Shown here: positions 2,212 through 51,560 of the stretch, one piece after another
How the letters are laid out: each line of letters opens with the position of its first letter
Numbering within the stretch: the first letter of the stretch is position 1
DNA from: Candidatus Woesearchaeota archaeon
GTDB lineage: Archaea > Nanobdellota > Nanobdellia > Woesearchaeales > UBA11576
Direction of reading: 5' to 3'
Length of the DNA: 64,000 bases
NCBI GenBank assembly: GCA_013203345.1
Contig: JABMQF010000062.1
Location: 2,490 to 66,489 of the forward strand
Program-made: the position numbers and the translations under genes
Notes under the pieces: model-generated
The model's database searches: none
The model's input: the letters and a program-made list of their open reading frames with translations, nothing else
Told to the model about the DNA's origin: nothing

Positions 2212-3684
2212 GTGTATGTTTCTGTTAAAATGAGATACGCAATAATCATACTAATCATGCTGATAGCAATCGTGGGTTGCGAAGAGCAGGAAATCATCGA
2301 GTCAAGGCCTGTCGATGCTGTTGACATCCCTTCAGAGGATGCTGCTGAGCCTGAAGCGCCTGTCACAGAAGATGAACCTCTTGAAGAAGAATTTGAATAT
2401 CTAGAGGAACCTATAAATGAAATACCTTCGGAAGAGATGATAGATGAAATAGAAGAGCCTCTCGAAGTTGAAGAACAGACTGTATATGAAGAACCAGAAA
2501 GAATAATCACCAGAGGCGGAACAGGAGGTTCTGGTTCTCAGGAAACAGAACCTGAAGAAGAGGAAGAAGAAGAGGAAACCGAAGAAGAAGAAGAGGCTGA
2601 AGAAGAAACAGAAGAAACTGTTTCATCAGATGTTATCCAGCCAAGTGATCTAACATACCTTGGAGCGTTCAGAGTTCCTGATGATATGGATGACATGGGT
2701 TATGAATGGGGCGGAACAGCAATTGCTTACTATCCAGAACATGAATCATTGTTTATGACAGGACATGAATGGTATCAAAGAGTTGGAGAGTTCAGCATAC
2801 CTGAGCCAAAGATGGGGGGTGTAGGAAATCTGAATACTGCAAATGAACTACAGCAAAGGACAGATGTTCGCGAGGCTTGGGATTATTTAGAAATACCAAG
2901 AGCAGCGCTTGCTTATGTTCCAGGACATGTGGGATTGTATATGGCATTTGCTCAGCATCTTGATTTTGAAACAACATCAAATCACGGATGGACAAGCATC
3001 ACACTTGATGATTCAAAAGGACCTTATAGCATAGGGGGACTTTGGAACTATCTTACATCCGATTATATGTTTGTGATACCTCCGGCATGGGCAGATGAAC
3101 ATGCTGACGGTCGAAGTCTGGCTACAGGTCGCTATAGAGACGGAGGACAGGCATCACAAGGACCTACAATCTTTGCAATATCTCCATGGGATGATCATGA
3201 TTATGTGACCTTGCTGAGATATTCAGATCATGCTTCGGATCCAACAGCAGTCAATAGCCTTAATGATTACTCCCATGCAGACGAATGGTCAGGAGGAGCA
3301 TGGATAGACGGCACAGTTGTGTTTGTAGGCTTTAAAGGAAAAGGAAACACATGGTATGGATATTATGATGGAACAGTAAGTGAAGAACCAGACTATCAGG
3401 AAGGACCAGGAGAAAGAGGATGGTGGGCAGACAACTGGGACGCAGAGATAATACTCTATGATGTTTCTGATTTTGAATCAGTTGTTGCTGGAGATATGGA
3501 AGCTTATGAGCCGCAACCTTATGCTGTGCTGGATATTTCCGATAGGATGTATAAATTCCCAGATAATGAGATACGTAAGTTAGGATCAGTTGCTTGGGAT
3601 GCAGAGGGTCGACGGTTGTTTGTCGCAGAACATCTTGGTGATGAAGATGATAGGCCTATTGTTCATGTGTGGAGTGTTGGGTGA
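2212..3684 (+). CDS. secreted/lipoprotein-like hypothetical protein with poly-acidic linker and W/G/D-rich C-terminal domain
   Basis: N-terminal hydrophobic segment ends in IVGC (lipobox-like). Long E-rich linker (EEEEEEEETEEEEEAEEETEE). C-terminal ~350 aa globular region rich in W/Y/G/D. Function not recognised. Confidence 0.55.
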   Translation: MYVSVKMRYAIIILIMLIAIVGCEEQEIIESRPVDAVDIPSEDAAEPEAPVTEDEPLEEEFEYLEEPINEIPSEEMIDEIEEPLEVEEQTVYEEPERIITRGGTGGSGSQETEPEEEEEEEETEEEEEAEEETEETVSSDVIQPSDLTYLGAFRVPDDMDDMGYEWGGTAIAYYPEHESLFMTGHEWYQRVGEFSIPEPKMGGVGNLNTANELQQRTDVREAWDYLEIPRAALAYVPGHVGLYMAFAQHLDFETTSNHGWTSITLDDSKGPYSIGGLWNYLTSDYMFVIPPAWADEHADGRSLATGRYRDGGQASQGPTIFAISPWDDHDYVTLLRYSDHASDPTAVNSLNDYSHADEWSGGAWIDGTVVFVGFKGKGNTWYGYYDGTVSEEPDYQEGPGERGWWADNWDAEIILYDVSDFESVVAGDMEAYEPQPYAVLDISDRMYKFPDNEIRKLGSVAWDAEGRRLFVAEHLGDEDDRPIVHVWSVG

Positions 3685-4857: not shown

Positions 4858-5322
4858 ATGGAAGAGCAATACTCAATCAAGGATGGTCGTGTCGAGGCTG
4901 TGATGTGGATCGTGTACAAGGATGGTGCGGTTGTTATCGAGAAGAGGCCTGCGCATCCTACCAAGGCGACAACTTGTTTGCCTGCAGGGCATGTTGATTT
5001 GAACAGAGACAAGGGAGAGGACTATATTGAAGCTGCTTTTATTCGTGAGAGTTCTGAAGAGTTTGCTGAAGGAAAATTCAAGCCTACTTCGTGGAAATAC
5101 CTGAAAGCAATTGATTTTGAAGAGACAGAAAGGGATGGTCGTGTGACCAAGCTGAAACTGCATTACTTTGTTGTGACAGAGTGGGAAGGTGATGTACCCG
5201 AGTACACAGTGGAGCACAATGGAAAGCATGCTGATCTTGAGTGGTTTTCAATATCACGGTATGAAGAACTGCCGCAGATCTGTGATCGGGAAGTGCTTAG
5301 TCATCTTGAGAAGATGTTGTGA
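4858..5322 (+). CDS. Nudix-family hydrolase (divergent Nudix box)
   Basis: GHVDLNRDKGEDYIEAAFIRESSEEFAEG approximates the Nudix box Gx5Ex7REUxEExGU but with altered spacing. Confidence 0.5.
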   Translation: MEEQYSIKDGRVEAVMWIVYKDGAVVIEKRPAHPTKATTCLPAGHVDLNRDKGEDYIEAAFIRESSEEFAEGKFKPTSWKYLKAIDFEETERDGRVTKLKLHYFVVTEWEGDVPEYTVEHNGKHADLEWFSISRYEELPQICDREVLSHLEKML

Positions 5323-5326
5323 GTTC

Positions 5327-5439
5327 GTTTATGCTATAAACAAATAACCTTAATTCTTTCTATTTTGTTTATGTTATAAACATTGTTTATTGTGTAAACA
5401 GAAAACTATATATAGGAGTTTTGCGTTTATTGTATAAAC
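5327..5439. promoter_or_regulatory. array of four 15-bp palindromic sites GTTTAT-N3-(A/T)TAAAC
   Basis: Sites at 5327-5341 gtttatgctataaac, 5367-5381 gtttatgttataaac, 5385-5399 gtttattgtgtaaac and 5425-5439 gtttattgtataaac. Each half-site GTTTAT is the reverse complement of ATAAAC. The array lies immediately upstream of, and overlaps, the HEPN gene. Confidence 0.55.
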
Positions 5440-5547
5440 CTGGAAGAACTGCTTGGCAATGTCATATCATTCTATCGATCTGCACAGATAGTAGAATCAT
5501 CTAAAGATTACACTTCAGCAACCATACTTTACTTCAAGTGTCTTTTT

Positions 5548-5781
5548 GTGATGGCAGACCTCATCATATTCCGCAAGAAGAGAATGACACCTAAAGACCA
5601 TACAGAAAGATTCAGGATGCTGGAAAAAGATTTTCCTGACATCTACACAGTGCTTGACAAGACATTCCAGATATATCGCGATACATACTCACTCAACATC
5701 GACAAAAAGAAGTGCGAAGAGGTAAAGCAGCATGTCATCAGAATTGCCAAAGAACAGGAAATTCATCTCGACAGTAAATAA
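5548..5781 (+). CDS. HEPN-domain protein (toxin-like partner of the downstream MNT); N-terminus uncertain
   Basis: RMTPKDH fits the HEPN Rx4-6H motif. Clear paralogy to the 7253-7612 HEPN (FPDIYTVLDKTFQIYRDTY vs YPEIYMIIDKDFPFYQDSY). The in-frame open reading continues upstream to 5416 with no ATG/GTG/TTG. Overlaps the MNT gene by 50 nt. Confidence 0.55.
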   Translation: MMADLIIFRKKRMTPKDHTERFRMLEKDFPDIYTVLDKTFQIYRDTYSLNIDKKKCEEVKQHVIRIAKEQEIHLDSK

Positions 5782-6316
5782 GTTCTACAAGAACAACAAG
5801 GAATCAGTGCTTGACATAGTCCTTTTTGGGTCAAGCACCAAGGGGAAAAAGGTGCCAAATGACATTGACATCCTTCTTTTGTTTAAGGATACAGAGGATA
5901 CAGACATCGCGTATGAACTCAGGAAGATTCTGAAAATATTCGGGAAAGTGCAGATAACTACAAAGACCTATTCGAATATGTTCGACAACAAATTCATGGC
6001 AAGGGAATCATATCTGTCTGAGGGCTACAGCCTTATTATGAAGAAAAGAATATCCTCCGGCCTCGGCTACTCCAGCAGAACAGTATTCAAGTACAAACTT
6101 CAGGGCTTTAACCAGTCAAGAAGGATGCAGCTACAGTACGCACTCTATGGGCGGGGCGGAAAGACAGGCATAGTAAAAGAATTCGGACTTGAGAAGTTCG
6201 CAGACACTGTGTTTTTCTGTCAGACAGAAAAAACAGAGAAGTTCAGGGAATTCCTAGACTATTGGGAGATAGAATATGATGTGTTCCCTATACTTTTACC
6301 GAAGAGGATGGTATGA
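5732..6316 (+). CDS. minimal nucleotidyltransferase (MNT, Pol-beta superfamily)
   Basis: LFGSSTKGKKVPNDIDILLLF matches the hG[GS]x9-13DhDh NTase signature. Confidence 0.75.
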   Translation: MSSELPKNRKFISTVNKFYKNNKESVLDIVLFGSSTKGKKVPNDIDILLLFKDTEDTDIAYELRKILKIFGKVQITTKTYSNMFDNKFMARESYLSEGYSLIMKKRISSGLGYSSRTVFKYKLQGFNQSRRMQLQYALYGRGGKTGIVKEFGLEKFADTVFFCQTEKTEKFREFLDYWEIEYDVFPILLPKRMV

Positions 6317-6733
6317 ATGGTACACCTTATGACTAATATTGCAGAGTATGCTATAATCATCGATGATAATAAGTTCCTTATGGTCCAATGGGGTCAGCAA
6401 TATGATAATACCTGGCACTTTCCTGGCGGTAGACTGGATGAGAATGATAGGGAGATAGAGGGTCTTAGACGTGAAGTCAAAGAAGAGATAGGTGTTGAGA
6501 TTATTGATATCAAGCCTGTGTTTTCCAAGTTTGTCACAAAGGCTGAATGTCAATATGCCAAAAAAGATTATCAAATGTATACATTATTCTACACTGCCAG
6601 GATCAAGCCAGGCCAGGAAATCAAACTCGATGAGGTGGAGCACCACAATTACAAGTGGTTTACTCGCAAAGATCTAGAGAATATTGAATTCTACATGGAT
6701 TTCTACAAAGAGATGCTAGAAGAGATATTTTGA
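6317..6733 (+). CDS. Nudix hydrolase
   Basis: Near-canonical Nudix box GGRLDENDREIEGLRREVKEEIGV. The start codon directly abuts the MNT stop (TGAATG at 6314-6319). Confidence 0.8.
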   Translation: MVHLMTNIAEYAIIIDDNKFLMVQWGQQYDNTWHFPGGRLDENDREIEGLRREVKEEIGVEIIDIKPVFSKFVTKAECQYAKKDYQMYTLFYTARIKPGQEIKLDEVEHHNYKWFTRKDLENIEFYMDFYKEMLEEIF

Positions 6734-6762: not shown

Positions 6763-7299
6763 CTATGCCTTCAAGATGTTCTTTCGCCCATAGTTGATTT
6801 TATGAGACTTCAATATCTCCGCGAACTCGTCAGAGTTTTCGATAGGTATCTCTATGACACCTGGCGCGATGTGGTCCCCGTCCAGCATCTTAACAATGCC
6901 ATCCCTTCCCCTGCCGCTCAGCACATAATTAAACTTGACTTTTTCCGTATGTGTCTTGTCCTTGAGATCATAGCTGAACAAAGCAGATGAAGTGAACCCA
7001 AGCAATCGGGAAAAGGGCTTTTGATGCCTTACACTGATACCTTCAAGAAAAATACCTGTCCTGGAGAAGAACTCAGGCCTGAACAACTCATGCAGAAGGA
7101 TTGCCTTGATATCCACTTTGACATCAAGGTCCTTGCGGATCTTCTGGATAGTCGTCAATCTTTCATCCAATGAACCAGAACTAAATATCACTGCAATATC
7201 TATGTCACCTGGCTTCATCTTTCCTTTTACACTGGAGCCATAAATGACAATGTCAAATATTTCCTTGGAAAGATATTTTTTTAATCTTTTCAGCATCAT
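6763..7299 (-). CDS. minimal nucleotidyltransferase (MNT)
   Basis: IYGSSVKGKMKPGDIDIAVIF NTase signature. Paralog of the 5732-6316 MNT. Confidence 0.75.
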   Translation of the reverse strand: MMLKRLKKYLSKEIFDIVIYGSSVKGKMKPGDIDIAVIFSSGSLDERLTTIQKIRKDLDVKVDIKAILLHELFRPEFFSRTGIFLEGISVRHQKPFSRLLGFTSSALFSYDLKDKTHTEKVKFNYVLSGRGRDGIVKMLDGDHIAPGVIEIPIENSDEFAEILKSHKINYGRKNILKA

Positions 7300-7612
7300 G
7301 TTTCATCATCTCAGCGGCTTCGGAATCCATCTTCTTTGTGTAGCTATCCTGATAGAATGGAAAATCCTTGTCTATTATCATGTATATCTCTGGATATTTC
7401 TCCTGAATTATCCTGAACCTGTTTGAGTGCGATGAGGGAACCTCGCCTTCAGACTTCAAGAGGAAAAGGTCCACGCCCGCACACATTGACTTGAAGAATA
7501 AAGTCGTAGCTGAGTTGAACCTTTGCTTATTGAAAGCCTCCATAGCGGAAACGAAGTATTCATTGATATTCTCAACCAGTATCTTCTCTTTTTCATCCAT
7601 TGTATAGTACAA
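7253..7612 (-). CDS. HEPN-domain protein (partner of 6763-7299 MNT)
   Basis: 119 aa, paralogous to the 5548 HEPN. Overlaps the MNT gene start by 47 nt, the typical HEPN-MNT operon architecture. Confidence 0.6.
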   Translation of the reverse strand: MYYTMDEKEKILVENINEYFVSAMEAFNKQRFNSATTLFFKSMCAGVDLFLLKSEGEVPSSHSNRFRIIQEKYPEIYMIIDKDFPFYQDSYTKKMDSEAAEMMKHDAEKIKKISFQGNI

Positions 7613-7771
7613 CGCAAAGGTAATATTTAAGGTTTTTGGTTGTATTGTTCAACATAAATCGTTTTTAAGTGGTTATTTGTTGTAGGGTACAACAAGGATT
7701 GGGGTGTAGATAGTCTATTCGCGAGAAGACCCCAGTGTTGCAAGAGATAATTGTGATAGAAAAATATTGAA

Positions 7772-39930: not shown

Positions 39931-40905
39931 TCAACTCATCACGCCCTGCGCCAGGGTTATGACAAAGAAAGCTACAGTCATCAATATCAATGAGTGCTTT
40001 GCACCTGACTTGAGATCACCCTCTGCAAGCTTTCCAAGTACAAGCCCTGCGAAACACGCCTGTATCATCGCAAGCATCAAGAACACGCCACGGATGGATG
40101 TGAACCAGGCACCTGCTGTGCCAATAAACGCGCCAAGCGAAGAAAAATCAACCTTCACAGGCCGGATTGCGCCTCCGAGCGCAGAAGAAGTCAAGGCCAT
40201 ACCTCCCTCTCCAATACCATCAATATTCTTTGATTCAATATTTGCAATGTAAGGTATAAGCAGGTTCTGAATCACTATCATAACGCCAAGGAACACTATG
40301 AATATTATATAGCTCTGCACGAGCTGGGAGTGGATGCCTGCCTTTCTTGCAAGCTTTATCTTCTTTATCTCTATAACAGACTTGGTAACTGTCTCGAGAA
40401 CATCCTCCATGTTACCTCCTGAAAGCTCAGCTTCTATCACTGTTGATATACTTCTTTTGATCACACCATTATTAGTCTCATTAGCAAATGTTCCCAGCGC
40501 CTTGTGTACAGGGATTGCCCACTCAACCTGATTAGCAAGCTTAACAATATGCGGTGTAAGCGCACCATAATCTGATTTTGCAACATATATAATCGCCTTG
40601 CTAACAGGCATGCCTGACTTGATAGATCCTACAAGATTCCTGACAAATTCAGGGAACATAGACTCGAGCTCCTTCTGCTTTTTGGAAAACATGAAGAAAT
40701 CCAACCAGAACTGCATCCATCCAATGCTTAAAGATATTATCAACAAAGGTATGAACCATGAAGTCTTCCTCAAGAATAATAAGTCCACTGCAAGCAGAGC
40801 TACCCCTAAAATAACGCCGATCAAATGCTTCTTATCAAAATGCCACTCCATCATAACACCATCATATCTCGGGTTGAGTAACCGTAAGGAAAGTAAGGAA
40901 CGCAA
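39931..40905 (-). CDS. type IV pilus/T2SS-F-like inner-membrane platform protein (TadB/TadC-like, second half of split platform)
   Basis: GspF-like cytoplasmic helical domain (SIKSGMPVSKAIIYVAKSDYGALTPHIVKLANQVEWAIPVHKALGTFA) flanked by TM helices. 44-nt overlap with the upstream platform gene. Confidence 0.6.
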   Translation of the reverse strand: MRSLLSLRLLNPRYDGVMMEWHFDKKHLIGVILGVALLAVDLLFLRKTSWFIPLLIISLSIGWMQFWLDFFMFSKKQKELESMFPEFVRNLVGSIKSGMPVSKAIIYVAKSDYGALTPHIVKLANQVEWAIPVHKALGTFANETNNGVIKRSISTVIEAELSGGNMEDVLETVTKSVIEIKKIKLARKAGIHSQLVQSYIIFIVFLGVMIVIQNLLIPYIANIESKNIDGIGEGGMALTSSALGGAIRPVKVDFSSLGAFIGTAGAWFTSIRGVFLMLAMIQACFAGLVLGKLAEGDLKSGAKHSLILMTVAFFVITLAQGVMS

Positions 40906-42808
40906 TATTCATGAACGGTATGACAACATAAGTTCCCATCACAATAATTACATTGACATCCATGCCACCAACCTTACCACCAAGAAGGCTCACAAGTGAC
41001 AAAGCAGCCACGAAGAAAAGCGGAGCCGCTATCAGTATGCCTGTGTAAATATCTGAATAAGTCGCTATAGTTTCTGTATACTGCTGACGCTCAAGCTTGT
41101 AATTAAGCATAGCCTCGTCTGCCTTCTGACTAAAGAACTGCTTCAAATCACCACCTGTCTGTGTTGTTGAAATCATACCTTCAAAAAAATCCTTGAACTC
41201 AAAAGAAGGTGTTGTAGCTGAAACAGCCTTCAATGAAGTAAGGACATCATATCCAAAAACATCTACATAATTAACTATCTTCTCTATTTCAGAAGACACC
41301 TCGCCATACTCAGTAGAGTCTGCGATAAGCCTGAACATTTTTATAGGTGCAACACCAGATGAAGACACTGCCGCCATATGATTTATCGCAAAAGGAAGGT
41401 TTGCGTTTATGCTTGCCCTCCTAGCTTTCATCATTGAATAAGGATAAGCGTAAAAACCTGCGAATATTGCGATACCGAGCAGCAAAGACATCATCAAAGT
41501 TCTGAACAAAACCTGTAATAAGGGTAATGAAGTTGCAGCAAAAAAGAACCCGAAAACAAACAACCCCAAGAACGAACTTGCAATAACACCTAAAACCATC
41601 ATGTTCACATAAGTATTCGAAAGAATCTTTATGTTAGCAAGCCTAATCGCATGATATAAATCCTTGAAAAATTCAGGAAACTGATCAAGAAGATAAAGAC
41701 TTATATGTTTTATACTCATATTAGCAAAAGATCCAAAAAAACTTGGTTGGTATACTTTCAAGGACTTTCTGCTGTCCATTATTGACCTTATCCTTCTAGC
41801 CTCTTTTGTAAATGATGTTGTAGATATCTTCTCTGCTTCAGCAATAACTTTTGGTTTCTCTCTTCTTCTGCGAGCAGCAAGATGGTAAGTTGATATAGGA
41901 CCTTTAGAAGGAATATCACTGAATGTTATCTTTCGTTTCCTATTAATAAGATTCTTGAAATAACCCATGTTGAAACCACTACCTAAAGCAATGGCTTCTT
42001 CAGGTTTGGTAACGGGCTTTGCAACTGGTTTGGTAACTGGCTTTGCAACTGCAACTGGTTTGGCAACATGCTTGGAAACAGGTGCTGCCTTTTTTGCAGA
42101 ACTATGCTTTGAGAATAATCTCTCAAACAAAGATGGTCGAGAAACGTGTACTGGAGAAGGCTTAGCAATAGGTTTAGATGCTGCCTGTCTATCAATAGGC
42201 TTAACCTTAGTCTTCAATTCATCCATAACCCTGTCAAGTTCACGTCTTGTCACCAGCCGCTTCATGAACAACTGCAATCTCTCAAACAATGAAGACTTTA
42301 TCTCAACAAGATGAGGAACAGACTTATCAGGAGCAACAATAAATTGCTTATCTGTTTGAACTGATGCTACGTGAGCAGGTTTTGCAAGGGCAGGTTTTGC
42401 ATGAACGGGCGTTGCAGCATGTTCTGGAATAGGCTTGACAACAGGTTTTACAACAGACTTAACAGCAGACTTAACAGCCGCGAGTGGAGACTGAACTTTC
42501 ACATCAACTATATTCTCAAAATCATTGTTGTTGTAAGCTTCATAGAAAAGCTGTGAATTATATGTCTCTATCTTCTTAAGCAATGAATAAACATAAGAAT
42601 CATAATATTCCATCCAATCCTCTTTTGATCTTCCTTTAAGAATTCTTTTCAATGATTTCTCATAACTAAAATAAGTTAGCGTACCGCTTTGATAGTCTGC
42701 GAACAGGCTGTCAATCCTTCTGATCAGATTCTGCTTATACACTCTGTAAGTCTCAATCTCAGAGATAAGTTCCAGAACCTTATTGACTATCAGCTGAACA
42801 TCCTTCAT
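40862..42808 (-). CDS. FlaJ/TadC-like membrane platform protein with K-P-V/A repeat linker
   Basis: C-terminal ~350 aa with T2SSF-like topology. Residues ~100-280 form a low-complexity A/K/P/V repeat (AKPVAVAKPVTKPVAKPVTKP, SAVKSVVKPVVKP). Confidence 0.65.
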   Translation of the reverse strand: MKDVQLIVNKVLELISEIETYRVYKQNLIRRIDSLFADYQSGTLTYFSYEKSLKRILKGRSKEDWMEYYDSYVYSLLKKIETYNSQLFYEAYNNNDFENIVDVKVQSPLAAVKSAVKSVVKPVVKPIPEHAATPVHAKPALAKPAHVASVQTDKQFIVAPDKSVPHLVEIKSSLFERLQLFMKRLVTRRELDRVMDELKTKVKPIDRQAASKPIAKPSPVHVSRPSLFERLFSKHSSAKKAAPVSKHVAKPVAVAKPVTKPVAKPVTKPEEAIALGSGFNMGYFKNLINRKRKITFSDIPSKGPISTYHLAARRRREKPKVIAEAEKISTTSFTKEARRIRSIMDSRKSLKVYQPSFFGSFANMSIKHISLYLLDQFPEFFKDLYHAIRLANIKILSNTYVNMMVLGVIASSFLGLFVFGFFFAATSLPLLQVLFRTLMMSLLLGIAIFAGFYAYPYSMMKARRASINANLPFAINHMAAVSSSGVAPIKMFRLIADSTEYGEVSSEIEKIVNYVDVFGYDVLTSLKAVSATTPSFEFKDFFEGMISTTQTGGDLKQFFSQKADEAMLNYKLERQQYTETIATYSDIYTGILIAAPLFFVAALSLVSLLGGKVGGMDVNVIIVMGTYVVIPFMNIAFLTFLTVTQPEI

Positions 42809-42832
42809 TTTACTATTGCAATACCCCCAAAA

Positions 42833-43048
42833 TCAAGAGATCTGTTCAAGACCCTCAAGCATGTGCTTGACGTGTAGCGAAAGCTTCAACATACGCTCCT
42901 TTGCGAACTTAGCCTCCTCTTTACGAACAATGATATCCTCATTACTATCAACACCTGCGTTGACAATATCCTCATAAAGCTCATCAAGTGCAGATATCTC
43001 CCTCATACTCTCATCGATGGAAAGCATTCTTTCCCGAAAGCCACTCAT
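42833..43048 (-). CDS. small hypothetical protein (71 aa) between ATPase and platform genes
   Basis: ORF track. 4-nt overlap with the upstream ATPase gene. Confidence 0.4.
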   Translation of the reverse strand: MSGFRERMLSIDESMREISALDELYEDIVNAGVDSNEDIIVRKEEAKFAKERMLKLSLHVKHMLEGLEQIS

Positions 43049-44811
43049 TTCATATCAAACCTCTTTAGAACCGACTCAGGATCCTTATAATAATCATTAA
43101 CTACCTTATTGAATTCCTGGAAAGAAGCAATATTTTTATCAGCCATCTTCTGCAATAAAATTGCACGCTGTTTCATCTCTGCAGTAATCTGCTCCTCAGT
43201 CATACCTGTTCTCTTTGTTATCTGCTCAAATATTGTCGGCTTATTTTTTAATAATATCTTATCGCTAGCAGGATCCAACTCAAAAACAGAATTGTACTTT
43301 GCTTGTCCTAAAGCCTGCTCAACTTCCAAAACCTCATCAACTTCTCTCAAGCGCCTTATGTTACGCTTCTGATCTTTTATATGGATGCAGATGCAGACAA
43401 CATCCAATGCCTCTACAAGAGACGGTGAAAGATTTATAGGAGGAGTCTCCAGCCTCTTCACAACAGTATCAACCGACGCTGCGTGGAATGTCGAGAATGA
43501 AGGATGGCCTGAAGCCATGCCCTGGAACAACACATAAGCCTCTTTGCCTCTGATCTCTCCCACAATAACATAATCAGGATTCTGCCTGAAACTCTCCCTA
43601 AGAAGATCGAAAAGAGTTATCTCACCATACTTTGTGCCCATCACAGTAGGCATTCCAAAACCTGCACGAGTGACCGCAGGAAGCCAATTGATGTGCGCAA
43701 GGTTCAACTCTCTTGTATCCTCAATAGAACATATACGAGCTTCAGGAGGTATAAAATCCACAATACAGTTCAGGAATGTTGTCTTGCCTGAAGCAGTCTC
43801 ACCAACAACCATTATATTGAACTTATTCTCTATAACAAGCCAAAGGTATGCGAAAGCTTCTGCAGTGGCAGTCCCTGACTTTATCAGATGGACAGGAGTC
43901 CAAGGTTCTTTTGTGAACTTCCTTATTGTGAAAGTTGGCCCGCGTGTTGTTATGTCCTCTGTGTAAGTAGCGTTAACTCTTGACCCATCAGGAAGAGTAC
44001 CGTCCAGTAAAGGCTTAGCATAAGATATGTACCTACCAGTCTTCTGCGCTAGCTTCTCTATAAAATCAGTCATGTACTGCTTATCCTTGAAAATAACAGT
44101 GGTCTTCAGGTTCTGATACTTCCTGTGAACTATGTACAATGGAAAATTCAAACCATTGCACTCAATATCCTCAACATAATAATCATTAAGCAAAGGCTCA
44201 ATCTCATTTAGACCGACAGAATTCCTGTAAACATAGTACATCAACTTTTTGTAACTCTTCTTACTAACCTTTGTACCTATCTCAACAAGAATGCTCTGTA
44301 CATTCTTCTCAAGATATTGAATAAGCAAATTAGACTTTGACGCACGAACAAAACTTATATTTATCATTTCCTCAAGGCCAAGATTAATCAGCTCAAGAAG
44401 CTCTTTCTCAGTATCATCAAGTATAGGCTCTTCAACAGAATAGATAAGCTCATTCTGCTCTTTATCCCAGTATAAATGCGCATAAGCATAAGGAGGAATT
44501 AAAGGATAACGCACATTTATTGTTCGCTTCTGATCATAAGGTGGAAGTTTTGTAAGCTTAGGTCTGAGATCTATGTAGAAACCATCATTATACTTGTTCT
44601 CTATTAATACCTCCGACCCTGCCTCTGAGCCTCCCTCTACTCCTTCCTCTTTAGAAGAGGATGAACTCTGCTCAGCATTGACTACAACCTCAGGTCCTTC
44701 AGGTTCAGGTTTAACCTTAATCTCAACACTACCTGTACCAACAGCACCACCTGCTGCCACAACAGGAGCGGTCTTATCTACTTTTTTTTTGAAAAACGGG
44801 AATGCCACCAT
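43045..44811 (-). CDS. FlaI/TadA/VirB11-family type IV pilus assembly ATPase
   Basis: Walker A VVGETASGKTTFLN. Asp box. Walker B and His box (VIVGEIRGKEAYVLFQGMASGH). N-terminal domain with an acidic low-complexity region. Confidence 0.85.
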   Translation of the reverse strand: MVAFPFFKKKVDKTAPVVAAGGAVGTGSVEIKVKPEPEGPEVVVNAEQSSSSSKEEGVEGGSEAGSEVLIENKYNDGFYIDLRPKLTKLPPYDQKRTINVRYPLIPPYAYAHLYWDKEQNELIYSVEEPILDDTEKELLELINLGLEEMINISFVRASKSNLLIQYLEKNVQSILVEIGTKVSKKSYKKLMYYVYRNSVGLNEIEPLLNDYYVEDIECNGLNFPLYIVHRKYQNLKTTVIFKDKQYMTDFIEKLAQKTGRYISYAKPLLDGTLPDGSRVNATYTEDITTRGPTFTIRKFTKEPWTPVHLIKSGTATAEAFAYLWLVIENKFNIMVVGETASGKTTFLNCIVDFIPPEARICSIEDTRELNLAHINWLPAVTRAGFGMPTVMGTKYGEITLFDLLRESFRQNPDYVIVGEIRGKEAYVLFQGMASGHPSFSTFHAASVDTVVKRLETPPINLSPSLVEALDVVCICIHIKDQKRNIRRLREVDEVLEVEQALGQAKYNSVFELDPASDKILLKNKPTIFEQITKRTGMTEEQITAEMKQRAILLQKMADKNIASFQEFNKVVNDYYKDPESVLKRFDMK

Positions 44812-44914
44812 GATTTCTCCATAATATTTTCCATCAATCTAAATTATCATTGATCTCATTAATCTTAATAATCAATAAAGCAAAATCATCAATAAATATA
44901 AATTATCAATAAAC

Positions 44915-45613
44915 CTACCTTATCTTCACCTCGAGGAAATCCCTATTACTCTTGAGCGTGAACTCAACAACAGTGTAATAGCTTTCATCTGTAGTATTAA
45001 CATAATAAACAACGCTTGCAGCTCCAAGACTTGAACCCTCATCCTCAAGCACAGAGAAACCTGAAGCGCTCCAGACTGGAGTGCCAAAATCGAATGTGAA
45101 ATCATCATCCGCAGCATCCTCTCCTCCTGTGTTCGGATCCTTGAAAACAAAATCAACAAGCATACTAGATTGGTTCAATGTGCATGTTTCACGATCCTCG
45201 CAACTGTTGAACACTGCGCGAATGTAAGTATTCTCAAGAGTGTAATTATCTCCCCGCCTCTGAGCAGACACATCAGCATTAGAAGATATGTAGAGATTAC
45301 CAAGCTCAACTTGCTGACCAGACTCAAGTATACGCGCATCTGTGCGCATATCCCACTTAAGTGAACCGTCCTTCAGCTCAAGAAAACCTTTCTCCACCTC
45401 AACAGGCACAACGCGCTGAGAACCAACACCCTCCTCAGAAATCTCAGAAATATGCTGGTTCAGCTGAATGAAAGTATTTTTTGATCTTGTGAACACAGAC
45501 TTGTCCTGTAATTCTCTGAGAATAGGAACACCCGCATTCAGGACGACAACCATAACTACAGTTATCACAAGTATGTAAAGTATTGCTGAAATCCATATCT
45601 GTCCTTTATCCAT
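44915..45613 (-). CDS. pilin-like protein with N-terminal class-III-type hydrophobic segment
   Basis: MDKGQIWISAILYILVITVVMVVVL N-terminus. Located within the pilin gene series. Confidence 0.5.
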   Translation of the reverse strand: MDKGQIWISAILYILVITVVMVVVLNAGVPILRELQDKSVFTRSKNTFIQLNQHISEISEEGVGSQRVVPVEVEKGFLELKDGSLKWDMRTDARILESGQQVELGNLYISSNADVSAQRRGDNYTLENTYIRAVFNSCEDRETCTLNQSSMLVDFVFKDPNTGGEDAADDDFTFDFGTPVWSASGFSVLEDEGSSLGAASVVYYVNTTDESYYTVVEFTLKSNRDFLEVKIR

Positions 45614-46040
45614 TTAATATACCCGGACTATCTTTTTGGAAGCTTATGTTCTTGAAATTTAATCCTCTGCACCCTTTAGGGTACACAATAACATAATCAA
45701 CAACAGCTATATCAACTGTGACAGGCTGCATAGATCTTTGGTCAAGCATAATGACTACATCCTTGACTTCACCTGCGCTCTCAACAACAATTGTCTCTAT
45801 TATCGAGCCAATGGTATTCTTGATGTCAAAGTTCAGAGTCATATTATTATATGAAACACTCGAAGCAGGTATGTCGAAATAGTATCTTCCGCACTCGACT
45901 GCAACCAATGTTTCCCGCGATGAATAAGCTGTCTGCTCAACAACCATACTGTAAACCCATACTGCTGTGAAAAGCACTAGCAGGATGAAAATCACAGCCA
46001 AAAATATGACAAGGCTTATCTTTCTTGACGTTCTATCCAT
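45606..46040 (-). CDS. pilin-like protein
   Basis: MDRTSRKISLVIFLAVIFILLVLFTAV N-terminus. 8-nt overlap with the next gene. Confidence 0.5.
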   Translation of the reverse strand: MDRTSRKISLVIFLAVIFILLVLFTAVWVYSMVVEQTAYSSRETLVAVECGRYYFDIPASSVSYNNMTLNFDIKNTIGSIIETIVVESAGEVKDVVIMLDQRSMQPVTVDIAVVDYVIVYPKGCRGLNFKNISFQKDSPGILNG

Positions 46041-46056
46041 TTTAAAAAATATTTAC

Positions 46057-46608
46057 TCAGATAAATACCTCTGAGCAAGGTTTGACATTCTTTGCTATAG
46101 TAGAGCTTGACGGGCACGCGATAACCGTTCCACCTACCTTGATGAAAGGTGTCAACTGTACCTGCTGTGGTGTCCCATACGTATTGTCATCATAGCTCAT
46201 ATTCAGCAGCTTTGCCTCATTTGTACTAAGGCTCGCAAATTCACCAAGATCTACTGTGTAAGGCACTCTTGTGCCAGTTCCTATCAGCCTGATTTCTATC
46301 TTCTCCACAGTCTTTGCCTTCTTGTTTGCAACAATGAACTGCATAGTCTCATTATCTACAACAGAAGTGTTGTAGCATATCTGGTCAACACCATCAATCT
46401 CAACAATATCAATATCAACATCTGAAGCGCACGTGACCTCTGTGTCTGAACGCTCCCTTGCGATGTTCGCAGTATCCTCAACATAACCTCTGCCCCAATT
46501 CATGACAACAGCACCTAGTGCTACTGCGAAAGCGATCAGAAGGACTGTCGCGATAAGCGGTGAGACTGCTTTCCTGGATTTTATTATTGAACTTCTCATA
46601 TTGCTCAC
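46057..46608 (-). CDS. archaeal type IV pilin (class III signal peptide, DUF361-like)
   Basis: KSRKAVSPLIATVLLIAFAVALGAVVM matches the archaeal pilin N-terminus (K/R-A/G | x-S-P-V/L-I-A-T-V-L-L-I). Confidence 0.7.
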   Translation of the reverse strand: MSNMRSSIIKSRKAVSPLIATVLLIAFAVALGAVVMNWGRGYVEDTANIARERSDTEVTCASDVDIDIVEIDGVDQICYNTSVVDNETMQFIVANKKAKTVEKIEIRLIGTGTRVPYTVDLGEFASLSTNEAKLLNMSYDDNTYGTPQQVQLTPFIKVGGTVIACPSSSTIAKNVKPCSEVFI

Positions 46609-46609
46609 C

Positions 46610-46897
46610 TCATTTCCTCAGATTTTGGAGCATGTTATTAAGTCGTTGCTCCTCTGAATGCATTGTCTTTACATAAGGTACTGTACCGATTATAAGAACG
46701 CACAGACCCATCACAACCAGAATATTCAACATTGTCCGTCCAAGGAATCCATTTATGAACCCAAGTACTGCCACGAACATGAATGCAAAATAAAGAATCA
46801 GGCTCTTGTTCATGACAAGCATAGACTTCTCTCTATTGAGACGAGATTTTTCCACCTCAAGATGGATTATCTCCTTTTTGACGCTAATCGCAGCCAT
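46610..46897 (-). CDS. small two-TM membrane protein
   Basis: ORF track. Two hydrophobic helices. Confidence 0.45.
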   Translation of the reverse strand: MAAISVKKEIIHLEVEKSRLNREKSMLVMNKSLILYFAFMFVAVLGFINGFLGRTMLNILVVMGLCVLIIGTVPYVKTMHSEEQRLNNMLQNLRK

Positions 46898-46915
46898 AGT
46901 GATACCTCCTTTTTT

Positions 46916-47386
46916 TTATGAACATGATGCTTCAACATTTACTGACGCTGTCTTGTCAGCACAAATTATCTCAAACCCATCTTTTTCTATGTGAGGGATG
47001 ACTTCAACATAAGTGACAGATGATACTCCTGTATCCAGCAGCACCTGTTTAATCCGGTCAGGATTCATAGCTATACTTGTCTCATTGGTGTGCAGCGGGA
47101 CCCGACCATTATATATCCTAAAATCCATCTCACTTATCCTTATATAGTTGTTATTCCGAAGCGTGATATTTAAAACTTGTGCAGACATGCATGCAGAATC
47201 CGCGTTCAAACCTACAAGACGACACTCATCAGTATTGTAAACTACCTTTTTCATATCCTCAGTAGAATCTTCTGTATACCCTACCATGAATTCATACATC
47301 AAAGCGCTGAGCATTATTGCAAATGCAACCAACAACACCCAGGATATCCATGGCGATACTGCTTTACGGTTGAACCTCTTTTTCAT
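46916..47386 (-). CDS. archaeal type IV pilin (class III signal peptide)
   Basis: MKKRFNRKAVSPWISWVLLVAFAIML. Confidence 0.7.
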   Translation of the reverse strand: MKKRFNRKAVSPWISWVLLVAFAIMLSALMYEFMVGYTEDSTEDMKKVVYNTDECRLVGLNADSACMSAQVLNITLRNNNYIRISEMDFRIYNGRVPLHTNETSIAMNPDRIKQVLLDTGVSSVTYVEVIPHIEKDGFEIICADKTASVNVEASCS

Positions 47387-47390
47387 GCAA

Positions 47391-47933
47391 TCACTCCATC
47401 ACAAAAATCTCTTGCTCAGAGCCCTTTCTGAGCCTCATCACAGCCTTTGCATCTGTTCCTTGACTTAAGATTGTGAATTTATAAATGTTTTCATGGAAAA
47501 CATCGTCCCTGACCTCCAAAACCATTTCTGAGACTGCGGAACGCAGGAAATACTCATAAGAACCTGAATCAACAGTCTGATTCAGGTTGATTATGTGAAC
47601 AGGGTTGTTCATGTGGTTAGATACATACACCCTATTTCCCGTCTCAAGAACTGTAACTGTCTCTATGTTTAGCTTCTTCATTCTCGAGTAAGAAATAAAT
47701 GATTCAAGGAAAACCTCAAACTCCTCATTAACATCCTCTCGTTCAAACAATGCGTTATTCAACGCAGCATGACTCTCAAAAGCGAAGTTGTCAAATGCGT
47801 GCCTGAAATTCTTTGATGAATAAGGCACCACACTCAATGACTGCAAAAGCAGAAGAGAGTATGCAATAAGCATAATAGCTGTCAGTATGTAAAACTGCGA
47901 TTTCCTGTTATTCAATATCTTCATCATTAACAA
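47391..47933 (-). CDS. pilin-like protein
   Basis: NNRKSQFYILTAIMLIAYSLLLL N-terminus. Confidence 0.5.
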   Translation of the reverse strand: MLMMKILNNRKSQFYILTAIMLIAYSLLLLQSLSVVPYSSKNFRHAFDNFAFESHAALNNALFEREDVNEEFEVFLESFISYSRMKKLNIETVTVLETGNRVYVSNHMNNPVHIINLNQTVDSGSYEYFLRSAVSEMVLEVRDDVFHENIYKFTILSQGTDAKAVMRLRKGSEQEIFVME

Positions 47934-50780: not shown

Positions 50781-51383
50781 TTAAATAGTCTTTTTGGCAC
50801 TTTCAACCACCTTGATTAACTGATCGTAACCAAACAGGACAATACCTCTTCTCAGTATGCTCAGGACAACTTTATCCATTGATTTGATATTGACCTTCAG
50901 GTCGTCTTTTGTCTGCTTCACTGCATGAATCCTCTTCACACTGAGTCCGCTTATCTCTTTGAGTAGGCTGTTTATCTTCTTGTTCTGGTTATGCTTGAAG
51001 ACCAAAAGCACGTCCACATCACTGAATTCCTTGTGCGACAGGACAGAACCGAACAAGATCCCTATATCCGCAGCGTCCTTAAACTTCCTCAATTCCTTAA
51101 CCCAGCGCTTTACTCTTGGTGTCGAGTGCTCTGCCTCTTTCTGTAGGATGAACCTCAGGTATGTCCTCGTGTAGTCATTGGAAAAATCCATTCTGTAGAA
51201 GACAGCCCGTCCCATCTGCCTTGATTTCAGTATGCCCTGCTTTTCCAGCCTTTTCAGTATCTTCAATGTTCCCATGGGCGTCAAGCCCAATCTCTTACTG
51301 AGGTTGTTGGCATTGTAATCTGTACTGAAATCCTTGAACAAGGTCAGCACAGCATTCATCTCGTTCATTGTCACAGTTTCCAT
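50781..51383 (-). CDS. winged-HTH (MarR/ArsR-like) + minimal nucleotidyltransferase fusion
   Basis: N-terminal NNLSKRLGLTPMGTLKILKRLEKQGILKS wHTH. C-terminal AADIGILFGSVLSHKEFSDVDVLLVF NTase signature. Confidence 0.7.
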   Translation of the reverse strand: METVTMNEMNAVLTLFKDFSTDYNANNLSKRLGLTPMGTLKILKRLEKQGILKSRQMGRAVFYRMDFSNDYTRTYLRFILQKEAEHSTPRVKRWVKELRKFKDAADIGILFGSVLSHKEFSDVDVLLVFKHNQNKKINSLLKEISGLSVKRIHAVKQTKDDLKVNIKSMDKVVLSILRRGIVLFGYDQLIKVVESAKKTI

Positions 51384-51560
51384 CTAAACCACCAGTTTAT
51401 ATATATAAACTTTTAGTTTATATATGTTTTGGAGGGGATTGTTGTTCAATATGCTAGGAAAGGAGCACCTAGAGAGGATAGCAGGGGCTAACAAAACAAA
51501 AAGTGCAATGTCCTTGATTGGATTGTTATTCATTTTGTTTGTTTGAATTTTTTGGTCATT

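Follow-up and report, generated by a model that had tools for sequence, protein, structure and literature searches.

Four 15-bp dyads at the promoter of a HEPN-like/MNT cassette from a Woesearchaeota archaeon: candidate operators that accompany an unannotated C-terminal domain across DPANN archaea

In the window, a 64,000-nt stretch of DNA from Candidatus Woesearchaeota, a DPANN archaeon, four near-identical 15-bp dyads fill the interval (5323-5439) that separates a Nudix gene (4858-5322) from a HEPN-like reading frame. Exact matches to NCBI proteins agree with this origin of the window. These dyads are probably the operators of a self-contained, autoregulated HEPN-like/MNT cassette, and the likeliest candidate for the protein that binds them is the C-terminal domain of the MNT nucleotidyltransferase. 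Judged from sequence comparison, the array is this genome's version of a promoter design that recurs among DPANN archaea. The genomes of these archaea are tiny and encode few recognisable transcription factors, and little is known of how their genes are regulated; to our knowledge, no genetic system exists for them. The cassette (cassette 1) and its control region consist of the following features:

4858-5322, Nudix hydrolase gene (Pfam), upstream flank of cassette 1
5327-5341, candidate operator site 1, GTTTATGCTATAAAC, distal module
5342-5366, + strand, distal-module spacer of 25 nt, AAATAACCTTAATTCTTTCTATTTT, BRE/TATA-like but degenerate
5367-5381, candidate operator site 2, GTTTATGTTATAAAC
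5385-5399, candidate operator site 3, GTTTATTGTGTAAAC, one mismatch, directly upstream of the BRE
5400-5414, + strand, BRE-like AGAAAAC (5400-5406) and TATA box TATATATA (5407-5414)
5425-5439, candidate operator site 4, GTTTATTGTATAAAC, between TATA box and start position, ending at -1
5440-5781, + strand, HEPN-like gene of 113 codons with CTG at the start position (homologue alignment)
5732-6316, + strand, MNT nucleotidyltransferase, 194 aa, with an N-terminal MntA-like NTase domain (Pfam, AF2, Foldseek)
6023-6313, + strand, ferredoxin-like C-terminal domain of MNT, residues 98-194 (AF2 model)
6317-6733, + strand, second Nudix hydrolase gene, starting right after the MNT stop codon (Pfam NUDIX 1.4e-16)

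All four dyads follow the pattern GTTTAT-N3-(A/G)TAAAC, with start-to-start distances of 40, 18 and 40 bp and central triplets GCT, GTT, TGT and TGT, which confirms the array as first described. It is not an artefact of AT-rich k-mers: the four matches at ≤1 mismatch are packed within 113 bp, and the 64 kb window holds no further match at this threshold. The paired form, GTT-N9-AAC-N25-GTT-N9-AAY, occurs in the window only at cassette 1 and at a second, related cassette (7599-7693), with 0.02 occurrences expected. Single GTT-N9-AAC elements with at least 5/6 complementary pairs are likewise confined to both cassette promoters, apart from one at 47487 that is a probable chance site. Rfam and tRNA scans gave no match anywhere in the window. 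A cluster at 40862-47933 (- strand) encodes T2SSF-like, T2SSE/PilB3-like and archaeal type IV pilin-like proteins, presumably for an archaeal type IV pilus or for adhesion. The gene at 2212-3684 (+ strand) encodes a protein of 490 aa whose N-terminus is signal-like and which contains a very long, E/D-rich acidic stretch of low complexity; Pfam gave no match for it.

The dyads are placed precisely around the core promoter. Sites 3 and 4 bracket the BRE/TATA element, with site 3 (-55 to -41) adjoining the BRE and site 4 occupying -15 to -1. The consensus from 55 homologous site 3-4 spacers, cGAAAAGTTTAAATA, reads as a textbook archaeal BRE plus TATA box. The TATA box lies ~25-33 nt upstream of the start codon, and several other genes of the window also have a TATA-like box at about -30. 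Homologues of the HEPN-like protein are 109-113 aa long and begin M-[ED]-E-L-L, and the initiating Met aligns with the CTG at 5440-5442. Site 4 therefore ends at -1 and merely abuts the gene, rather than overlapping its reading frame as the initial annotation had it; that the frame is open through site 4 is due solely to the position of the nearest in-frame stop upstream, 5413-5415. A start ATG directly follows the last dyad in 8 close metagenomic relatives and in nearly all of 79 genome loci. Between the stop at 5413-5415 and a GTG at 5548, the window has no in-frame ATG, GTG or TTG, and NCBI annotates only a 76-aa product from ATG 5551 (P0004). The CTG could reflect loss of the start codon, a consensus error or non-AUG initiation; as the HEPN-like gene lacks an ATG, this copy of the cassette may be partly decayed. 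The HEPN-like mRNA is probably leaderless or nearly so, in which case site 4 would fill the ~15 bp from the TATA region to the transcription and translation start, and would lie upstream of the transcription start site.

How general is this arrangement? A scan of 185,579 species-representative genomes yielded 80 related loci, of which 79 were usable for site counts; almost all carry the label of a DPANN-type archaeon (Woesearchaeota, Nanoarchaeota and relatives). Every related locus has a HEPN-like gene followed by an overlapping MNT gene with a ~95-aa C-terminal extension. Of the 79 loci, 64 have GTT-N9-AAC at -15 and 60 have it at -55, to the exact base, compared with a background of 2.9e-4 per position. 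Repeated dyads thus bracket the core promoter of their own operon both here and in 60-64 of the 79 loci. That a dedicated regulator stands behind the sites, as had been proposed, is upheld by their locked position in ~80% of the 79 loci, their absence elsewhere in the window and their cassette-specific sequence.

Most relatives carry only the two-site core unit. Distal sites are found within ±1 bp of -113 in 26/79 loci and of -73 in 24/79, so that about a third of the loci share the 40/18/40 design, including one (L001) with GTTTAT-type sites at all four positions. When scored against a BRE/TATA matrix built from the site 3-4 spacers, the site 1-2 spacers reached -5.6, compared with -27.8 (sd 10.5) for shuffles, and the forward orientation outscored the reverse complement. 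The spacers between sites 1 and 2 are therefore BRE/TATA-like, which points to the four-site array as a tandem duplicate of a two-site module (site, BRE/TATA, site). On this evidence, sites 1 and 2 are best read as a duplicated promoter module whose distal TATA box is decaying. The array had originally been described as unusually dense; the four sites are real, and such a duplication would account for their density. A CRISPR-like array was also considered and set aside, as there are only 4 copies of a 15-bp unit and the "spacers" are conserved promoter elements. One subfamily of seven loci (L041, L045, L047, L055, L062, L064 and L080) carries a further pair of operators where the MNT gene ends, alike in class to the first pair and 40 bp apart from start to start. 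Counted from the HEPN ATG, this is about +868 to +956, and in some loci the pair runs over the MNT stop codon. It may serve as a looping partner or a downstream promoter, or mark the boundary of the cassette.

The same comparison redefines the genes under this promoter. A tblastn search of the 80 related loci with both Nudix genes as queries (E≤1e-3) came back empty, and we dropped the Nudix genes as part of a conserved system. The conserved unit is thus the HEPN-like gene plus the long MNT gene, and not the HEPN-MNT-Nudix operon described earlier; the downstream Nudix gene (6317-6733) is probably co-transcribed with MNT here, yet a passenger specific to this window. The HEPN-like protein of the window has no Pfam match, and its homologues give only sub-threshold matches to Pfam HEPN/HEPN_AbiV and the JGI label UPF0332/HEPN. 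An alignment of 80 homologues contains no conserved column for the Rx4-6H RNase motif (maximum 9/80 per column); what the homologues conserve instead is PKDHxxRF and YRxTY. Without Rx4-6H, membership of the HepT/MntA family is not established, and the toxin-antitoxin label given to the pair becomes uncertain; the HEPN-like/MNT pair may instead be a two-subunit nucleotidyltransferase. MNT itself matches Pfam Polbeta/NTP_transf_2 and is modelled by AF2 with a pLDDT of 89. Its N-terminal domain matches MntA structures in Foldseek (6m6u/7bxo, E 1e-4; also 5yep), and the catalytic motif GSx(8-12)DxD is present in 75/75 family members. MNT therefore has the pol-beta NTase fold and catalytic motif of MntA, and its score against the NCBIfam MntA model is below the cut-off.

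The sites of different cassettes differ in sequence. The outer GTT/AAC is constant, and the inner half-site is lineage-dependent yet palindromic, falling into at least six classes: GTTTAT/ATAAAC, GTTGGT/ACCAAC, GTTAAT/ATTAAC, GTTATA/TATAAC, GTTAGN/NCTAAC and GTTGTA/TACAAC. Within a locus, sites 3 and 4 share 4.0/6 inner positions, compared with 2.48±0.18 when sites are shuffled between loci, and inner dyad pairs are complementary at 1.69/3, compared with 1.20±0.08. Differences in class also occur within single genomes. The window contains a second cassette, convergent with the first, in which the half-site is GTTGTA rather than GTTTAT:

6763-7600, - strand, second HEPN-like/MNT cassette (Pfam, hmmsearch)
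7600-7253, - strand, its HEPN-like gene
7299-6763, - strand, its MNT gene, with C-domain (hmmsearch, E 1e-30)
7599-7693, - strand, its promoter, with three GTTGTA-type sites spaced 40/40
7693-7679, - strand, first site, GTTGTACCCTACAAC
7653-7639, - strand, second site, GTTGAACAATACAAC
7613-7599, - strand, third site, GTTGTACTATACAAT, overlapping the ATG by 2 nt
7638-7614, - strand, stretch holding the BRE/TATA element caaaaaccttaaata, bracketed by sites

Two further loci from one metagenome-assembled genome (L014 and L074) also differ in operator class; the second cassette at L023 is an identical tandem copy and is uninformative. Paralogous cassettes of one genome thus have different, dyad-symmetric operators, which argues for a symmetric dimer encoded by each cassette and against one global factor. 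No wider regulon, such as the initial annotation proposed to look for, is evident: a metagenome scan for paired TTTAT-type sites matched 17 contigs, 8 of them with HEPN-MNT cassettes and the rest mostly unrelated repeats (2 are possibly decayed cassettes), and no other target genes emerged.

Within the cassette, the C-terminal domain of MNT (C-domain, ~95 aa) is the best candidate for the binder. AF2 models it with a beta-alpha-beta-beta-alpha-beta, ferredoxin-like topology (pLDDT 89), and its net charge is +7. Searches of Pfam, NCBIfam and the PDB (by PDB profile, and also with the tandem protein described below) returned no sequence match. Its fold matches are weak and Cas2-like (best 2ivy, E 0.036, TM 0.45); the C-domain has no recognised DNA-binding fold, which counts against the proposed role. 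Its conserved first helix, alpha-1, reads S-x-R-M/V/T-R/K-F-Y-Y-x-L-x-G-R, and the domain signature can be written S-x-K/R-V/M-R-F-Y-Y-A-L-K/Y-G-R.

A profile search of 1.84 billion representative proteins recovered 515 relatives of the C-domain. Some consist of two tandem copies alone (~160 aa), and in others two copies lie ~90 aa apart. By hmmsearch, the tandem-domain proteins have two C-domains each and no HEPN or NTase domain, and cluster look-ups supplied neither name nor taxonomy for them. Nine independent tandem-domain genes were examined, and each carries two or more GTT-N9-AAC dyads of the GTTAA type in the 200 nt before it, for a total of 20 dyads compared with 0.56 expected, and at three of them (L099, L100 and L105) the layout is again site, 25 nt with BRE/TATA, site. 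The dyads therefore co-occur with the C-domain in three protein architectures. Because the operator design accompanies the C-domain into operons without HEPN or NTase, the C-domain is the best candidate autoregulator, which narrows the earlier suggestion of the MNT/HEPN complex as binder to one domain of MNT.

The link between C-domain and operator is strong but not universal, as a 364-aa fusion of NucS_C nuclease, MNT and C-domain beside a PIN-like gene (L109, P0241) has no GTT-N9-AAC upstream of its gene. Residue 132 in helix alpha-1 covaries with operator position 4: where that position is G/T the residue is Met in 38/39 cases, and where it is A the residue is Thr/Val/Ile in 34/36, a correlation that is confounded by phylogeny. 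Mutual information between operator class and all columns of the HEPN-like and MNT alignments, similarly confounded, did not single out any protein or domain. An overlapping gene of 236-294 aa follows each stand-alone tandem-domain gene (L098-L108); those scanned gave no above-threshold Pfam match and one marginal match to Big_9 Ig, and at L107 the downstream gene is a second tandem-domain gene. At L104, whose tandem-domain operon uses GTTAAG-type sites, two copies of another dyad, GTTTCTTTTGGAAAC, stand in intergenic DNA downstream of the operon (2874-2888 and 2964-2978), a different operator class on the same contig.

We propose the following model for how such a cassette could work. The core unit would be a 15-bp dyad, the BRE/TATA element, a second 15-bp dyad and the start codon. 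A cassette-encoded dimer would read the constant GTT/AAC ends together with the cassette-specific inner half-site, most likely by means of the conserved helix of the basic C-domain, and possibly within a HEPN-like/MNT complex. With both flanks of the TATA box occupied, and with site 4 covering the landing zone of RNA polymerase, TBP/TFB and RNA polymerase would be excluded, resulting in negative autoregulation. The 40-bp spacing (~four helical turns) would place two dimers on the same DNA face, where they could interact, and the distal pair (sites 1 and 2) could add cooperativity; the cooperative repression suggested at the outset is thus plausible. More broadly, we see about an even chance that the C-domain founds a new family of non-HTH, sequence-specific archaeal regulators. 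Such a family would include the stand-alone tandem pairs, each member reading its own variant of GTT-N9-AAC on both sides of a TATA box, with many insulated copies per DPANN genome and a simple residue-to-base code, for example between residue 132 and operator position 4.

The same operators could instead mainly activate the cassette, or act as a concentration-dependent switch from activation to repression, which we consider possible but rather unlikely. Site 3 is directly upstream of the BRE, the constrained position of the archaeal activators Ptr2, LysM and Ss-LrpB (PMC2995911), and a dual switch is therefore possible; Ss-LrpB turns from a positive into a negative autoregulator as it binds cooperatively to multiple sites in its own control region (PMC2995911). 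However, site 4 covers -15 to -1, in the landing zone of RNA polymerase, in 64/79 loci, and its occupancy should repress.

The dyads could also be bound by a factor that is not linked to the cassette, either an Lrp/FFRP-type regulator or a wHTH-MNT fusion encoded in the window:

50781-51383, - strand, 200-aa wHTH-MNT fusion with an N-terminal winged helix (HTH_24, Penicillinase_R) and a pol-beta NTase domain

This is improbable, though several features fit it. The 15-bp 6-3-6 form with a mostly A/T centre resembles archaeal FFRP sites (abcdeWWWedcba), such as the optimum site of FL10, GTTCGA[AAT/ATT]TCGAAC (PMC2715240), but the central triplets in the window are not all W. The cassette proteins have no recognisable HTH, and the RAM domains of Lrp/FFRP proteins share the beta-alpha-beta-beta-alpha-beta topology of the C-domain, to which they give very weak fold matches. 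The promoter of the wHTH-MNT gene (51395-51410) contains a perfect 16-bp palindrome, GTTTATATATATAAAC, with the half-sites of the cassette 1 operators and an extra ATAAAC half-site upstream, so that the fusion is a possible cross-talk partner or alternative binder. Yet with half-sites 4 nt apart and a TATA-like run overlapping it, this palindrome could plausibly be due to chance. A Pfam scan of small ORFs of the window gave no AsnC/Lrp-type match, and its only HTH match was the wHTH-MNT fusion. The inner operator differs between cassettes of one genome, so that one dedicated factor per cassette would be needed, and the sites travel with the C-domain into operons that have neither HEPN nor NTase.

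Two other explanations would make the dyads something other than protein-binding operators for transcription of the cassette. As recombination or boundary sites of a mobile cassette, they would account for the second same-class pair at the 3' end of MNT in 6-7 related loci and for the multi-copy, patchy placement of the cassettes. Most loci, both window cassettes included, have upstream sites only, however, the register with BRE/TATA and ATG is exact, and no recombinase is linked to the cassette; this explanation is very unlikely. It is no more credible that the palindromes form RNA or single-strand hairpins, either as a terminator of the upstream Nudix gene or as a 5'-UTR structure. Dyad symmetry is retained through compensatory changes, the whole 123-nt region folds at -25.3 kcal/mol (z -3.5) and a T-rich run follows the Nudix stop codon, but each hairpin is worth only -0.5 to -0.8 kcal/mol, on which ground we rejected this reading. 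Moreover, many homologous sites pair at only 3-4/6, the positions are locked to BRE/TATA and ATG whereas the upstream neighbour gene varies among loci, and site 4 would be upstream of the transcription start. Finally, chance is refuted as the source of the array: the half-sites are AT-rich and the single 15-mer with 2 mismatches allowed is not enriched in the window (6 found versus 3.5 expected), but the clustering of the four close matches, the rarity of the paired form and the repetition of the architecture in homologous loci leave virtually no room for it.

Autoregulation by operators that belong to the cassette is thus the preferred reading. At least 70 genomes share this promoter/operator design and its exact geometry, and the candidate binder that comes with it is annotated in no database; the C-domain could add a new DNA-binding fold to the repertoire of archaeal regulators. 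The design also offers an account of how an MNT "antitoxin" could gain promoter binding, and draws attention to an abundant DPANN HEPN-like/MNT pair without the RNase motif expected of a toxin. We found no published description of the promoter design or of the C-domain; Makarova et al. mention no more than an MNT-HEPN gene fusion specific to DPANN (PMC6393860).

Several known systems resemble parts of this cassette. The type VII HepT/MntA pair SO_3166/SO_3165 of Shewanella oneidensis also has adjacent, overlapping HEPN-type and MNT-type genes and palindromes over the core promoter, and the NTase domain here is structurally MntA-like. The Shewanella MNT antitoxin has no recognisable DNA-binding domain, yet by EMSA it binds and represses its own promoter, which has palindromes at -10/-35 (PMC4621449). 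By analogy, the cassette described here would work like an autoregulated toxin-antitoxin operon. The differences are that the HEPN-like gene comes first (the order is reversed) and lacks Rx4-6H, MNT is longer by a 95-aa domain, the promoter is of the archaeal BRE/TATA type, and 2-4 near-identical 15-bp dyads at a fixed 40-bp spacing replace two dissimilar palindromes.

In operator geometry, the nearest parallel is the multi-site autoregulation of Lrp-type proteins, although the cassette has no recognisable HTH. Among archaeal Lrp/FFRP regulators, Ss-LrpB and others likewise have 15-bp 6-3-6 dyads at several regular sites in their own control regions, one of them just upstream of the BRE, and combine cooperative binding with concentration-dependent autoregulation (PMC2995911, PMC2715240). 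In contrast, the cassette encodes no HTH_AsnC, the candidate binder is a ferredoxin-like domain, and sites are 40 bp apart and bracket the TATA box on both sides.

At the level of fold, the C-domain shares the beta-alpha-beta-beta-alpha-beta arrangement of Cas2/VapD proteins (Foldseek best SSO1404, SSO8090 and several Cas2) and an "L-x-x-Y-G-x-R"-like stretch after helix alpha-1, but the scores are weak (E 0.036-0.1, TM about 0.45). We rejected its assignment as a Cas2, as there is no Pfam Cas2 match at E≤1 and no CRISPR array or cas genes are nearby. The DNA-binding domains of papillomavirus E2 and EBNA1 are dimeric and ferredoxin-like, and their first helix reads the half-sites of a spaced palindrome. 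They could provide a model for how a non-HTH C-domain might read GTT-N9-AAC, as an analogy only, with no fold or sequence match. The kind of control proposed here, operator-controlled autoregulation, would thus be one already known, and what is plausibly new is the family of DNA-binding domains that may exert it.
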